The notes: generated by a model from the letters alone, not told the origin. A stretch of 64,000 nucleotides of DNA from Escherichia coli (GCF_024700885.2 NZ_CP117016.1); one strand, 5' to 3'; shown: positions 7,948 to 40,431, counted from the stretch's first letter. Numbers and translations: made by a program.

Positions 7948-8012
7948 TTACCTAAAAAACCACATATGGATAGACAACCCATAAATACGAACAGATATTA
8001 CCTTTCAGGTAA
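7948..8012. promoter_or_regulatory. divergent control region: TTACC half-site + AACCACATATGG motif (7948-7971) and full operator TTACC-TTTCA-GGTAA (7998-8012)
   Basis: Same palindrome family as in the cI/cro intergenic region. Confidence 0.5.
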
Positions 8013-8049
8013 TTCGCAAAACGTGCTGGATAGCAAACAAATTATTTGG

Positions 8050-8069
8050 TACTGTATAAATATACAGTT
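8050..8069. promoter_or_regulatory. LexA (SOS) box TACTGTATAAATATACAGTT
   Basis: CTGT-N8-ACAG with AT-rich spacer, overlapping a TATAAAT -10-like hexamer, 20 nt upstream of the ATG at 8089. Confidence 0.65.
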
Positions 8070-8088
8070 ATTGCATGGAGAAGATAAG

Positions 8089-8346
8089 ATGCAGCAGTAT
8101 CACTATCCACTGGAAGACGGATTTACCGAAAGGATTCACACGCCGGGAGGCGTCAGGTCACTGGTGGATGGATCGCACTTGATGAAATTACTCCGGGATC
8201 TCGATAAGGATGGATTTAATGTCGATGGCCCACTTGCCGAACTGACTGCACTGATTAACTACGTCACCAGCTCACAGATGTCTATGCAGGATCTGCAAAC
8301 ACATCTCGACTATTGTGCCGAACAATTACGAAAACAAACTACATAA
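8089..8346 (+). CDS. small LexA-box-preceded protein (85 aa), function unknown; candidate antirepressor or SOS-induced moron
   Basis: GGAG Shine-Dalgarno 9 nt upstream; start chosen at internal Met of ORF 7966-8346. Confidence 0.55.
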   Translation: MQQYHYPLEDGFTERIHTPGGVRSLVDGSHLMKLLRDLDKDGFNVDGPLAELTALINYVTSSQMSMQDLQTHLDYCAEQLRKQTT

Positions 8347-8350
8347 AGAA

Positions 8351-8369
8351 AAGGCCGCGAAAGCGGCCT
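8351..8369. terminator. hairpin GGCCGC-gaaa-GCGGCC, terminator for the leftward membrane-protein gene
   Basis: Perfect 6-bp stem; T-run on the minus-strand side. Confidence 0.5.
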
Positions 8370-8381
8370 GTGACATGTCAC
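8370..8381. repeat. 12-bp perfect palindrome GTGACATGTCAC (copy 1)
   Basis: Identical 12-mer also at 28555-28566. Confidence 0.8.
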
Positions 8382-8674
8382 GTTCCTTTTCTGAATGATA
8401 GCCATTCGAAAAATGATGACATTCCACCGCAGACAATAGCAAAGATGATCCCACCAAAGAAGAGAAGGCCAGCCTGCCACCACTCCCACCGCCATACATC
8501 CACAGCGCCAACCATACCAACAATCGCTCCAACAAATGGAATATAGCTCACGATGAAAGCGATGGGGGCTGCAATTATCCAGTGCAATCCCCACCATGAT
8601 TCAAGCCCAGCCATAATTGCTGCCAACTGAAAAAGACCAACGACGATATAAACAATGAATCCTATAGCTTGCAT
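8378..8674 (-). CDS. small integral membrane protein (98 aa), moron between ejection proteins and tailspike
   Basis: Three hydrophobic helices, Trp-rich; AGGTGA Shine-Dalgarno; preceded by a further ~50-codon hydrophobic ORF without ATG start (about 8700-8850). Confidence 0.55.
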   Translation of the reverse strand: MQAIGFIVYIVVGLFQLAAIMAGLESWWGLHWIIAAPIAFIVSYIPFVGAIVGMVGAVDVWRWEWWQAGLLFFGGIIFAIVCGGMSSFFEWLSFRKGT

Positions 8675-8869
8675 GTAGTCACCTATTTACCCAGTAAAAA
8701 TAAGAGGCCTCCCCTCAATAAGGCTTGCAACAAGAACTACTCCCTGCACAACAAAGATGAACCAGCAAATAGCTTGAGTCTGAGGGTTAAGAAAATATTT
8801 GTAGCGGTCAATAAATAACAATCCACCAGAAATTATCACACTCAAAATAATTAAAAACACAACACTTCC

Positions 8870-37569: not shown

Positions 37570-37618
37570 CCACCACCGCGGCGCCACGCGCGCCGCACTG
37601 CAACCAAGAGAGGTATTT

Positions 37619-37867
37619 ATGAAAGGTGCATTAGGTAAGAAGGAACTCCTGGCGGTGGTGCCACTGTCATGGAGCACTATCGACCGTATGGAGCGCGCAG
37701 GGGAATTTCCTAAACGCTGGTATATCACCGATAAACGCTGCGCATGGAACCGTGATGAAGTTGAGCGTTGGCTTGATGAACGTCAGGCAGCAAGCCCGGC
37801 AGAGTTCCAGGGTAAAAAACCTCCTGTTCAGCAACGTGTATATCGTCCTGTGAGCAACGCGGCATGA
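37619..37867 (+). CDS. AlpA-like HTH regulator / excisionase-like protein
   Basis: LSWSTIDRMERAGEFPKRWYITDKRCAWNRDEVERWL matches the AlpA/Xis winged-helix pattern. Confidence 0.6.
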   Translation: MKGALGKKELLAVVPLSWSTIDRMERAGEFPKRWYITDKRCAWNRDEVERWLDERQAASPAEFQGKKPPVQQRVYRPVSNAA

Positions 37868-37976
37868 GTGTGCTGCTAAGGCACTGGAGCAAATGGTCAG
37901 GATGGTACTTATTCCTGGCCTCTGTTTCAGCATGGCTTTATCTGCTGGCATTAATTTTCAGAGAGGGTTGGATTAA

Positions 37977-38276
37977 GTGAGAAAGTTAAGCCGACTTGAA
38001 AAATATCACATGAACAAGGTTTCAATGCGCAGCCCTTCAAAGGTTGTTGCCGTTACTCCTGCGGCGATAGAGATCGAAAAACGCGCGATTGAAAGAGAGA
38101 AAAAAGGGCAGTTCCGCATTGCCGCCCACCTTTGGCTTCAGTGTATGGATGTTGCTTCTGGTGATGTTGAACGTGCAAGGATCGCGGTTCGCAGGGACCA
38201 ATGTATCACAAAAGGTAACGGCCTTCGCCGTGGCGACTATAGCGGCATAGGATGTTGTGGGGTGGTTTATGACTAA
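37977..38276 (+). CDS. hypothetical protein
   Basis: ORF between alpA-like and methyltransferase genes. Confidence 0.4.
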   Translation: MRKLSRLEKYHMNKVSMRSPSKVVAVTPAAIEIEKRAIEREKKGQFRIAAHLWLQCMDVASGDVERARIAVRRDQCITKGNGLRRGDYSGIGCCGVVYD

Positions 38277-38919
38277 GAAATACACACTAATCTATGCAGA
38301 TCCACCCTGGGCATACCGGGACAAAGCCACAGATGGTAATCGCGGTGCCGGTTTTAAATATCCGGTTATGAGTGTGCTGGATATCTGCCGCCTTCCTGTG
38401 TGGGATTTGGCCGGTGAAAACTGTCTGTTGGCCATGTGGTGGGTGCCAACACAACCACTCGAAGCACTAAAAGTTGTTGAAGCCTGGGGATTCCGTCTGA
38501 TGACCATGAAGGGCTTCACGTGGATAAAATGTGGTAGTCGACAACCAGATAAACTGGTTATGGGGATGGGACACATGACTCGCGCCAACAGTGAAGATTG
38601 CCTGTTTGCGGTAAAGGGAAAACTACCTCCGCGCATTAATGCAGGTATCGTTCAGTCATTTACCGCACCGCGGCTTGAGCATTCAAGAAAACCAGATGTC
38701 GTTCGTGAAAAACTTGTGCAATTGTTAGGCGATGTTTCTCGCATTGAACTGTTCGCCCGCCAGTCGTCTCATGGCTTCGATGTTTGGGGTAATCAGTGCG
38801 AAGACCCGGCAGTGCAACTACACCCAGGATACGCGTTGGATATTGCCGGATTAACAAATGCATTCAGCAATGCTCCGCTGTCACCAACAGACAACCAGGG
38901 GCGGGAGCGTGCAGCATGA
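38269..38919 (+). CDS. MT-A70-family N6-adenine DNA methyltransferase (orphan)
   Basis: Catalytic motif IYADPPWAY; no adjacent restriction gene. Confidence 0.8.
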   Translation: MTKKYTLIYADPPWAYRDKATDGNRGAGFKYPVMSVLDICRLPVWDLAGENCLLAMWWVPTQPLEALKVVEAWGFRLMTMKGFTWIKCGSRQPDKLVMGMGHMTRANSEDCLFAVKGKLPPRINAGIVQSFTAPRLEHSRKPDVVREKLVQLLGDVSRIELFARQSSHGFDVWGNQCEDPAVQLHPGYALDIAGLTNAFSNAPLSPTDNQGRERAA

Positions 38920-39110
38920 ACAGGGCATCACCAGCAGATTTAAGGAAATGCCTTGAAACTGCAAACATGCTTGCACACAGCGGGATCAGGTTTGTTCCAA
39001 TTCCCGCTGTCACTGATGCTGAATTTGCAACACTGTCAGCAATATTCACAGATAAAATTGAATCACTGGCAGCAGAAGCCGAGATGGAAGAAAATCAGCA
39101 GAACTATTAA
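38916..39110 (+). CDS. small hypothetical protein (64 aa)
   Basis: ATG overlaps methyltransferase stop (ATGA). Confidence 0.4.
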   Translation: MNRASPADLRKCLETANMLAHSGIRFVPIPAVTDAEFATLSAIFTDKIESLAAEAEMEENQQNY

Positions 39111-39113
39111 ACG

Positions 39114-40364
39114 TTATTCCCCCGCCATCCACTTCTCAAACTTCGACGGGGAGAACGGAATCAGATCCGTATGCTCCCCGTTAATCCAGGAATCAATCAT
39201 ATCGGCCCACTGCTGCAACATGTAGGCGCGCTGTCTGGCGTATTCCGCTTTGTTATATACGGCGCGCACACCTTTCTGCTCATGTGCCAGAGCCTTTTCA
39301 ATCCAGTCTGAAGGATAACCAGCCTCATGCAACAACGTACTGGCTGTACGGCGCATATCGTGTACGGTGAAGTCCTGAATATGCTCACCATCTTCATTTA
39401 TTATTTTCACCGTTCTGTCGATCAGAGAGTTCAGCGCGGCATTAGATAATGGCTTCCGGAAATTGTAACGACCAGGAACCAGATATTCACTTCCACCAGC
39501 GCACATCTGCAACCCGACCAATATATCCTGAACCTGTTTAGGCAGGTAAATAACATGCGCCCGGCTTCCCTTCATGCGGTCTGAAGGAATTGTCCATGTC
39601 CATTTTTTAAAATCTATTTCATCCCACGTTGCATTGGTGAATTCGCCCTTACGAACCATAGTGATAAGCACCAGTTTTAAAGCCATTTTCATAGTGCCCA
39701 TAGCACCAATGGCATCCAACGTGCGGAAGAACAGGCCAATTTCTTCTGGTGTCAGTGTTCGCTCTCGTGGTTTAAATATGGCGATAGACGAAGGTTTAAT
39801 GTCAGCCGCAGGATTAAACAAACCATGACCACGGTCATTGGCGTGACGGTATACGCTGCTGATGATCTCCCTGGCCTGTACTGCTGTTGCCCGACCACCG
39901 CGTTCGACAATCCGGTCACACAAATCACGAACCATCGATGTGGTAATTTCAGCCATCATTTTGTTGCCAAGAACCGGAAGTATGTCACGGTCGATCACCG
40001 CCTGCTTCATTGCGCGGGTACTGTCAGCCAGGATGACGTGTTTCATATAACTGTCGGTATGTACCGCAAACGTCTCGGCACCACGAATTTTTTTGATACC
40101 GTCACGTTTAGCCGCAGCCGGCGACTGGCCTGCTTTAAGCAGCTTCTTTGCAGCAATCAGTTCTTCTCGCGCTTCTGCCAGGCTGATACCGTCACGCCCA
40201 TACTGCCCGATTACCAGTGTTTCGCGGCGACCGTTGATACGGTAGTCATAGCGAAACGAGACCGTGCCTGACGTAAGCACAGCTACATACAGCCCGTCAC
40301 GATCGGAGACCTTGTACAGTTTGTCCTGCGGCTTGAGGTTTTTTAATTTTGTATCGGTAAGCAC
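39114..40364 (-). CDS. int: tyrosine integrase (P4-like, N-terminal DUF4102-type arm-binding domain)
   Basis: 416 aa; C-terminal catalytic region with HDMRRT and terminal Tyr-containing segment; adjacent to attR. Confidence 0.9.
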   Translation of the reverse strand: MLTDTKLKNLKPQDKLYKVSDRDGLYVAVLTSGTVSFRYDYRINGRRETLVIGQYGRDGISLAEAREELIAAKKLLKAGQSPAAAKRDGIKKIRGAETFAVHTDSYMKHVILADSTRAMKQAVIDRDILPVLGNKMMAEITTSMVRDLCDRIVERGGRATAVQAREIISSVYRHANDRGHGLFNPAADIKPSSIAIFKPRERTLTPEEIGLFFRTLDAIGAMGTMKMALKLVLITMVRKGEFTNATWDEIDFKKWTWTIPSDRMKGSRAHVIYLPKQVQDILVGLQMCAGGSEYLVPGRYNFRKPLSNAALNSLIDRTVKIINEDGEHIQDFTVHDMRRTASTLLHEAGYPSDWIEKALAHEQKGVRAVYNKAEYARQRAYMLQQWADMIDSWINGEHTDLIPFSPSKFEKWMAGE

Positions 40365-40406
40365 AATTCACCCGTATAGAAACCATTTTCATGACGGTAT
40401 GAGAGT

Positions 40407-40431
40407 ATACCTTTAAGGTAATACCGTCACC
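40407..40431. promoter_or_regulatory. integrase upstream region: ATACC-TTTAA-GGTAA palindrome overlapping putative arm-type site ATACCGTCACC
   Basis: 11-mer ATACCGTCACC also present at 1627-1637 near attL. Confidence 0.4.

Follow-up and report, generated by a model that had tools for sequence, protein, structure and literature searches.

Dispersed TTACC-N5-GGTAA palindromes as candidate immunity operators of a phiV10-like prophage in Escherichia coli

The palindrome TTACC-N5-GGTAA recurs along a phiV10-like prophage and is likely to be the operator of a Uetakevirus immunity switch, occupied by the repressor Rep at nearly every transcription unit and released by the antirepressor Ant. The analysis covered a 64-kb stretch of Escherichia coli DNA (the window). 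Judged from sequence comparison, the distal copies and the operators of the immunity region (OR and OL) are one and the same element: the distal copies are orthologs of phage epsilon15 sites that carry a repressor-binding annotation, their arms are selectively maintained at every locus, and those at terS and int overlap predicted core promoter elements. On these three grounds, the reading that fits best is that the immunity system directly controls int and, at the least, the packaging operon. The original prediction held that such copies, if they are repressor operators, would silence integrase and late promoters directly, unlike lambda, with binding of a different phage factor as the alternative; the former view is supported for int and the packaging promoter. 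Prophages of the epsilon15/phiV10 type are a common family in E. coli and Salmonella; phages of this family carry serotype-converting genes and are used in O157 typing.

Recurrence and conservation of the palindrome

The sites were located within the following element, which was 97% identical to phiV10 and its relatives and was bracketed by att cores ATTGAGTGGGA(A/G)TGATT at 1539–1555 and 40555–40571; the guaA ORF was at 40557–42134.

1556–40554, - strand: phiV10-like (Uetakevirus) prophage, 39 kb, inserted at the guaA 3' end and reversed relative to the phiV10 record

Exact copies of TTACCNNNNNGGTAA (TTACC-N5-GGTAA) were found 8 times in the window against 0.04 expected, a count reached by 0 of 100 dinucleotide shuffles, and matches with at most one mismatch were found 12 times against 1.0 expected. 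The claim that the motif recurs far above chance thus held under a shuffled control, for exact and near-exact copies alike. When spacer length was scanned, repeated occurrence was seen only with the 5-bp spacer. Credible sites numbered 13 in total, all between the att cores and all judged non-coding, spread over 32 kb in eight separate loci; the flanking host DNA (about 25 kb) held no exact copy and a single one-mismatch copy (55792), which is chance level. This agrees with the earlier description of the copies as intergenic and confined to the prophage. A 'coding' status of several palindromes was rejected, the ORFs concerned being small, spurious products of a crude ORF caller and unsupported by deposited annotations.

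The positions first proposed were largely confirmed. Sites 7998, 25233, 32218 and 32280 were exact, and 40407 was, as described, a variant with one mismatch, but 34226 proved to be a two-mismatch variant and not a full copy. The five immunity-region sites (34563 with one mismatch, 34594 with two, 34611, 35323 and 35385) stood, but a pair near terS, 28444 (one mismatch) and 28462, had been left out. The fuller consensus was (A/T)TTACC-N5-GGTAA(T/A). A weak A-over-T bias was seen at the spacer centre (56 vs 8 among 66 sites).

The sites were syntenic in phiV10 (which has 14), epsilon15, SPC32H/SPN1S, Tyrion and Klebsiella phages. Over 66 orthologous sites, divergence was 1.6% in the arms, 41.7% in the spacers and 33% in the flanks. 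The same pattern was seen within a population sample of 80 related prophages from IMG/VR loci, all carrying an identical Rep, where segregating positions were 2/120 in arms, 25/60 in spacers and 89/675 in flanks (Fisher, 4e-12 and 4e-5). By this comparative measure the palindrome arms are under strong purifying selection at every locus. A palindrome present in the lysis operon of relatives was absent from the present prophage.

Placement of the sites at predicted promoters

The immunity region contained a Rep homologue paired with a divergent small Cro-like gene, three OR sites and two OL sites.

34681–35265, + strand: Rep, immunity repressor, 194 aa, 100% identical to the phiV10 and ZX5 repressors
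34296–34526, - strand: small Cro-like protein with an HTH, encoded divergently from rep, matching phrog_35 'transcriptional repressor' (E=6e-13)
34563–34577: OR1, TCACCCATAAGGTAA, 1 mismatch, within the PR spacer, with an ortholog in all relatives
TTGTTA 34580–34575, 17 nt, TATTAT 34557–34552, - strand: predicted PR, driving cro
34594–34608: OR2, TTACCCATGAGGTGC, 2 mismatches, 31 bp from OR1 and 17 bp from OR3
34611–34625: OR3, exact copy, overlaps the rep promoter at its -10-like TAATAT, without variation in 80 related loci
35323–35337: OL upstream operator, centre about -62 of PL, 3' of the rep terminator (35286–35305)
35385–35399: OL downstream operator, spanning about -7 to +8 of PL
TTGACA 35357–35362, 17 nt, AATCAT 35380–35385: predicted PL, 10/12 matches
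34255–34274, - strand: cro terminator
34226–34240: degenerate site TTACCCTTAAGGTGC, 2 mismatches, flanked by the cro terminator on one side and the p42-like and replication genes on the other

Rep was homologous to SPC32H Rep (PDB 5D50, E=4e-42), with 5D50 and 5D4Z as its only structural relatives. Pfam assigned an N-terminal HTH and a second HTH-like domain, and among these HTH-only matches no S24 (LexA-like) autocleavage domain was found. The HTH residues AGTT..Y of the Cro-like protein were invariant, distant relatives included. A three-site OR layout (17 + 30 bp) was also found in epsilon15 and SPC32H, polymorphisms of OR2 were confined to its spacer, and the PL geometry with its 62-bp operator pair was kept in six genomes. 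The degenerate 34226 site was orthologous to one-mismatch sites in most relatives.

A second 62-bp sandwich like that at PL was found in the nin region, in all six genomes, and a further pair lay near terS.

32218–32294, - strand: nin-region promoter cassette, with operators 32280–32294 (about -62) and 32218–32232 (+1)
TTGATT 32260–32255, 17 nt, TTTAAT 32237–32232, - strand: predicted nin promoter, flanked by both nin operators
28462–28476: operator of terS, covering about -7 to +8 relative to an extended -10 promoter
TG 28484–28483, TACTAT 28481–28476, - strand: predicted extended -10 promoter before terS
28496–28513, - strand: terminator 5' of the terS operator
28444–28458: second, weaker terS palindrome, 1 mismatch, overlaps the ribosome-binding site of terS

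The element TGnTA(C/T)TAT directly 5' of the terS operator was kept in 6/6 genomes. The two terS palindromes lie within terS under the phiV10-style start and upstream of the epsilon15-style start, which is downstream of the terminator; the probable start is the ATG at 28441. Operator status of the 28444 palindrome is doubtful, since its counterparts in epsilon15, SPC32H and Klebsiella relatives are degenerate.

The remaining sites were found at the head, tailspike, ant and int genes.

25233–25247: head-operon upstream site, centre about -79 of a late-type promoter element
25168–25190, - strand: late-type promoter element before the head operon, CATATGTGGTT, 7 nt, TAATAA, near-invariant in six genomes
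7998–8012: site between the divergent ant and tailspike genes, at about -67 relative to the tailspike late-type promoter and about -58 relative to that of ant
7945–7967, - strand: late-type promoter element before the tailspike gene, ATATGTGGTT, 7 nt, TAATAG
8050–8069, + strand: LexA box TACTGTATAAATATACAGTT, over the ant promoter
8089–8346, + strand: Ant, small antirepressor, 85 aa, 87% identical to SPC32H Ant (E=3e-57; phrog_450, phrog_1760)
40407–40421: int-proximal site, TTACCTTAAAGGTAT on the - strand, 42 nt upstream of the int GTG start

The 25233 site formed the 5' edge of a block kept in six genomes, and the late-type element, CATATGTGGTT-N7-TAWNAW, was conserved, non-canonical and without a -35. 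A small antirepressor gene under a LexA box adjoins the tailspike gene. At int, the variant arm followed by ACT reads as a -10-like TATACT (40409–40404, - strand). The GGTAT variant arm was present there in all six genomes, with a perfect TATAAT in epsilon15, and the site showed no variation in 13 related loci; the spacer of the proposed Pint is short, at 15 nt. Overlap of palindromes with the predicted promoters PL, Pnin, PR, PterS and Pint was conserved.

Since the head, tailspike and ant sites lie upstream of the core promoters, at about -58 to -79, simple occlusion would not explain repression there. The idea that the single head and tailspike sites have an unnoticed partner operator 62 bp downstream was rejected because only isolated GGTAA half-sites in differing registers were found. 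Consensuses of host factors (CpxR, OmpR, GntR-type; a DnaA box for the ATGTGGTT element) gave no fit.

SPC32H Rep binds palindromic DNA in tetrameric form, and Ant takes the tetramer apart (PMC9638917; PMC9986798). Rep could therefore plausibly bind a pair of palindromes simultaneously; the small Cro-like protein would probably recognise the same sites. Practically no transcription unit would lack a Rep-occupied site in the lysogen. The three OR sites would block PR and autoregulate rep. PL and the nin-region promoter would each be enclosed by a 62-bp pair, one member of which covers the start point. Rep would sit at +1 of the extended -10 promoter at terS and over the -10 region at int, and the ant, tailspike and head promoters would have single sites lying upstream. 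Upon DNA damage, LexA would be removed from the ant promoter, and Ant would dismantle the Rep tetramers and release all units together. The comparisons show the sequences and positions of the sites, their conservation and selection, and the homologies of the proteins; Rep binding at each site, the promoter assignments, looping and the mechanism of repression at the upstream-only sites are what we infer.

Recognition of the core and rival explanations

Divergent Reps were collected by exhaustive protein search, and covariation of the operator with the Rep recognition helix was not found among these loci, which keep TTACC-N5-GGTAA. Helix 3 read SETTVSLW, QPNQISRY and KASLVSQW in core-keeping relatives vs QANLVNRW here, and only the outermost base shifted with a divergent Rep (A/T to T/A in locus L088). 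The core is kept despite a wholly different helix 3, and Rep is therefore not demonstrably its reader. The AGTT..Y residues of the Cro-like protein were kept in all relatives with a differing Rep helix 3. A Rep paralogue (P0024) was noted as a moron in a lambdoid prophage; it was uninformative, as no repeated palindrome was found in that prophage.

A tentative and rather improbable extension is that the core may be fixed by something other than the Rep recognition helix (the Cro-like protein or a non-canonical Rep–DNA contact), and that the single upstream head, tailspike and lysis copies may be a looping hub of Rep tetramers or activator sites for the CATATGTGGTT-N7-TAWNAW late promoter class, not occlusion operators. 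If true, this would be a switch architecture undescribed for temperate podoviruses.

It is unlikely that the distal single sites (58–79 bp upstream of the head, tailspike and lysis promoters) serve mainly the Cro-like protein or another phage factor in lytic growth, as activator or turn-down sites and not for silencing by Rep. Such a role would fit the unchanged core where Rep helix 3 differs at all predicted contact positions, the kept Cro-like residues, positions typical of upstream activators, and adjacency to the non-canonical late element. However, Rep must bind the same palindrome at OR and OL for immunity to work, the upstream PL and Pnin sites share the -62 position within clear repressor sandwiches, and Cro as an activator is without support. 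Lysis genes also respond to Rep: overexpression of the ZX5 repressor, which is 100% identical to the present Rep, lowered endolysin and holin transcripts by >99.9% and left no free phage (PMC9782041).

Far less probable is a non-transcriptional role, as integrase or excisionase arm sites at int, packaging signals at terS, or a restriction-modification or methylase target. The int-proximal copy does lie between int and the att core, abutting an integrase arm site annotated in epsilon15, the terS copies are where pac-related signals could be, and DNA methylases are encoded by the phage. Yet OR and OL, on either side of the repressor gene, are made of the same motif. Every copy is intergenic and keeps a fixed register with -10 and -35 hexamers, whereas no avoidance of coding DNA would be expected of a restriction-modification or methylase target. 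Fixed arms spaced by one helical turn, with a free spacer between them, are characteristic of an HTH dimer. That a short palindrome should recur by chance is favoured by the AT-richness of intergenic regions and nothing else, and is practically dismissed by the shuffled controls, which refute it, by synteny across genera and by purifying selection on the arms.

Relation to known switches

Operation of the palindromes as dispersed Rep operators, the preferred reading, is not a new idea but a rediscovery, because the epsilon15 GenBank record (AY150271.2) already annotates seven orthologous sites as 'protein_bind: repressor'. These are ATTACC-N5-GGTAAT at the same loci (terS, head operon, ant/tailspike, OL, nin promoter). 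The OR, int, lysis and second nin sites are unlabelled there, the lysis-operon site being the one that the present prophage lacks, and phiV10-type records contain no repressor-site annotation. The epsilon15 putative repressor-binding sites are reportedly associated with Kropinski et al. 2007. Literature text searches for the motif or for Uetakevirus operators returned nothing relevant; LF82 'Gally' was rejected as a lead, being a P22-like phage.

The antirepression switch of SPC32H Rep and Ant is said to be the work of Kim & Ryu 2013 and Kim et al. 2016. It resembles the present system in its homologous tetrameric Rep, its 87% identical Ant with a LexA box, and its gene order, but Rep is only 42% identical, with a diverged middle domain.

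What is added is detail and not a new principle, dispersed sites being annotated in epsilon15 and classical in P1 and L5. The detail concerns the wiring of this prophage family, with a single operator type at every transcription unit instead of a lambda-style cascade, so that inactivation of Rep via Ant could release int, packaging and early genes together. Knowledge of this wiring is of use in annotating such prophages and in engineering them as reporters.

With lambda CI the present system shares divergent PR/PRM, three OR sites and a PL downstream of the repressor gene, and separated sites are probably bound cooperatively. It differs in that 8/13 sites lie outside OL and OR, in that Rep has no S24 domain and induction would run through a LexA-controlled antirepressor, and in the predicted operator-bearing promoter of int itself. 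P1 C1 is a single immunity repressor with operators scattered over the genome at unlinked operons and with antirepressor-based induction; the present system is alike in its many operators at promoters of unlinked operons and in its antirepressor. P1 operators are asymmetric 17-mers bound by a monomer, whereas the sites here are palindromic and suited to HTH dimers or tetramers, and Rep is unrelated to C1. The 'stoperators' of L5 gp71 are asymmetric sites whose action depends on orientation and which block elongation at a distance from promoters. Many sites in intergenic gaps genome-wide, virion genes included, are common to L5 and the present prophage, but the arms here are symmetric and stand mostly in fixed register with promoter hexamers (-10 at PL, Pnin and PterS).

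Palindrome sites and their conservation

Eight exact copies of the palindrome TTACC-N5-GGTAA were counted across the 64 kb of the window, where dinucleotide shuffles predict 0.04, and 12 copies with up to one mismatch against 1.0 expected, so the recurrence far above chance claimed in the original prediction was borne out by the shuffled-sequence scan. No spacer length other than 5 bp was recurrent between the arms in the window. The prophage (39 kb, 97% identical to phiV10 and relatives, genus Uetakevirus, epsilon15 group) has integrated at the guaA 3' end, reversed with respect to the phiV10 record. 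Its att cores (1539-1555 and 40555-40571) enclose all 13 credible sites, including two two-mismatch copies that were admitted as orthologous to better copies in relatives. One of these, 34226, had been taken for a full copy. The motif was not found at similar density outside the prophage: approximately 25 kb of flanking chromosome held no exact palindrome and one single-mismatch copy, which is chance level.

Palindrome sites (window position, match)
7998, exact
25233, exact
28444, one mismatch
28462, exact
32218, exact
32280, exact
34226, two mismatches
34563, one mismatch
34594, two mismatches
34611, exact
35323, exact
35385, exact
40407, one mismatch

Strong enrichment was found in every relative tested, with 14 (phiV10), 15 (epsilon15), 18 (SPN1S) and 13 (a Klebsiella relative) sites at up to one mismatch against about 0.5 expected. 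Syntenic site classes in the relatives were single before terS, the head operon, the lysis cassette and int, in the ant/tailspike divergent region and after the cro terminator, and multiple at the nin-region promoter (a pair), OR (three, between cro and rep) and OL (two to three, at PL). The region upstream of lysis is replaced in the prophage and no operator was found there, unlike in the relatives. Pairwise differences over 66 orthologous sites from six genomes were 1.6% in the arms, 41.7% in the spacers and 33% in the outer flanks, with ACC and GGT invariant (66/66). Among 80 IMG/VR prophages encoding identical Rep, the immunity repressor, 2 of 120 arm positions were segregating, as were 25 of 60 spacer and 89 of 675 flank positions (Fisher tests, 4e-12 and 4e-5), both arm changes being in the degenerate 34226 site. 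As judged by these sequence comparisons, both tests show the arms to be under selection. A free spacer between fixed arms one helical turn apart is the footprint predicted for a dimeric HTH protein, for the distal sites and the immunity region alike. The palindrome is a real feature and in all likelihood a functional one.

For all 12 operators compared across 80 related loci, the spacers were more polymorphic (42% of positions segregating) than surrounding intergenic flanks (13%). In 56 of the 66 orthologous sites the central spacer base was A when read on the sense strand. Candidate causes of these patterns are relaxed constraint, affinity tuning and diversifying selection.

Putative operators relative to predicted promoters

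Promoters were assigned by prediction from sequence and conservation.

Predicted promoters and operator placement
PR (to cro): TTGTTA, 17 nt, TATTAT; OR1 within the spacer
PL: TTGACA, 17 nt, AATCAT; operator begins at the final T of the -10
nin-region promoter: TTGATT, 17 nt, TTTAAT; 62-bp operator cassette as at PL
terS promoter: extended -10 TGnTA(C/T)TAT directly after a terminator; operator register as at PL
int promoter: TATACT, formed by variant arm GGTAT and ACT; operator overlaps the -10

OR2 is 31 bp from OR1 and OR3 is 48 bp from it, with OR3 overlapping the -10-like TAATAT of the predicted rep promoter. At PL a second operator is placed exactly 62 bp upstream of the first, and the nin-region cassette was present in six of six genomes, as was the extended -10 at terS. 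The variant arm GGTAT at int is kept in every genome (the epsilon15 -10 there is TATAAT), with a hexamer containing TGAC 15 nt upstream of TATACT. Direct control of late and integrase promoters, as originally proposed, is supported at terS and int, where the operator overlaps core promoter elements; at head and tailspike no such overlap is apparent.

A phiV10-style terS start would enclose a rho-independent terminator and two operators (28441-28522, minus strand). An epsilon15-style start (ATG at 28441, MPAEP...) appears much more plausible, and the phiV10 terS annotation is therefore probably about 27 codons overlong.

A second conserved element lies 30-42 nt downstream of the palindrome at head and tailspike, and in relatives also at lysis. 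It is composed of CATATGTGGTT, 7 nt and a -10-like TAATAA, TAATAG or TATGAT, with no recognisable -35. Here it stands before two operons, head and tailspike; the relatives examined have it before lysis as well.

Late-type elements
25168-25190, minus strand, containing CATATGTGGTT, before the head operon
7945-7967, minus strand, containing CATATGTGGTT, before the tailspike operon
32238-32247, 34207-34216 and 3525-3534, all minus strand, variants

The element is probably an activator-dependent late promoter, for which gp49/p55-like or PerC-like proteins are candidate regulators. Operators would be centred between about -67 and -79 for the head and tailspike late promoters and near -58 for ant, and from these positions simple occlusion is not evident. 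The predicted start points are about 28469 for terS, 40397 for int, 25161 for head and 7938 for tailspike.

Candidate reader proteins and known systems

Immunity genes
34681-35265, rep, product 100% identical to the phiV10 and ZX5 repressors
8050-8069, canonical LexA box preceding ant
8089-8346, ant, antirepressor gene, product 87% identical to SPC32H Ant

Rep is homologous to SPC32H Rep (PDB 5D50, E=4e-42) and contains HTH domains, with no S24 autocleavage domain among its domains; the small Cro-like gene is divergent from rep. Papers citing the SPC32H work describe SPC32H Rep as a tetramer that binds palindromic DNA and is disassembled by Ant, and say of its mechanism of repression that it 'has not been extensively characterized' (PMC9638917; PMC9986798). 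Three lines favour Rep: OR and OL carry the identical element, sites of this kind are annotated in epsilon15, and there is a published overexpression result. The epsilon15 GenBank record holds seven 'protein_bind: repressor / lysogeny' features, all ATTACC-N5-GGTAAT and placed upstream of terS, upstream of the head genes, near the tailspike gene, and at both OL and the nin promoter; phiV10-type reference records carry no repressor-site annotation. Overexpression of a repressor 100% identical to Rep lowered endolysin and holin transcripts by >99.9% (PMC9782041). Rep helix 3, (Q/S)ANLVNRW, was unchanged across the first five subtypes compared. No covariation of the palindrome core with helix 3 was found in a wider set of relatives, the core being retained at OR, OL and distal loci despite helix 3 sequences SETTVSLW, QPNQISRY or KASLVSQW, and Rep binding at every site is therefore something we infer. 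The Cro-like protein, which retains AGTT..Y in all these relatives, is a live candidate as reader, or at a minimum as a second constraint on the palindrome sequence.

Loci with a wholly different helix 3 and an unchanged core were L088 (GCA_024343595.1), L092 (CP086369.1) and L091. All nine sites in L088 read TTTACC...GGTAAA, not ATTACC...GGTAAT, so specificity differences may reside in the outermost base pair. In alignments of the E. coli window with the Salmonella phage SPC32H, Ant was 87% and Rep just 42% identical, the N-terminal helix and C-terminal Ant-binding/tetramerisation segment of Rep being conserved and the middle domain diverged. An HK97-like lambdoid prophage with its own CI/Cro pair (GCA_047784855.1) carries a Rep paralogue at 10001-10600, flanked by the Q antiterminator and the lysis genes; no TTACC palindromes were found in that locus.

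The original finding correctly rediscovers, in a prophage of the phiV10 type, dispersed palindrome operators already known in kind. In function the arrangement is comparable to the scattered P1 C1 operators and to the L5 stoperators, to which it is related neither in protein nor in site symmetry. Lambda differs in that most sites here lie outside OL and OR, the repressor is not autocleaving and int has its own predicted operator-bearing promoter. The analysis adds some modest details: an extended -10 conserved at terS, operator pairs sandwiching promoters at 62 bp, a late-type promoter element, a reason for the GGTAT variant at int and the absence of covariation with helix 3 of Rep.

Other features of the prophage

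A hexapeptide-repeat acetyltransferase-like gene (ORF 3644-4768, plus strand) stands in place of the phiV10 oac module. Its 3' end consists of 42.8 copies of an 8-bp unit in perfect tandem, GCACAGCA (4419-4760), encoding (GTAAQQHSS)n. Since 8 bp is not divisible by 3, slippage in copy number would change the reading frame, and the ORF is possibly a serotype-conversion gene subject to phase variation. Direct repeats of 12, 18 and 24 bp cluster at 33493-33631, within the replication-initiator gene (33114-33929, minus strand), and are likely origin iterons.
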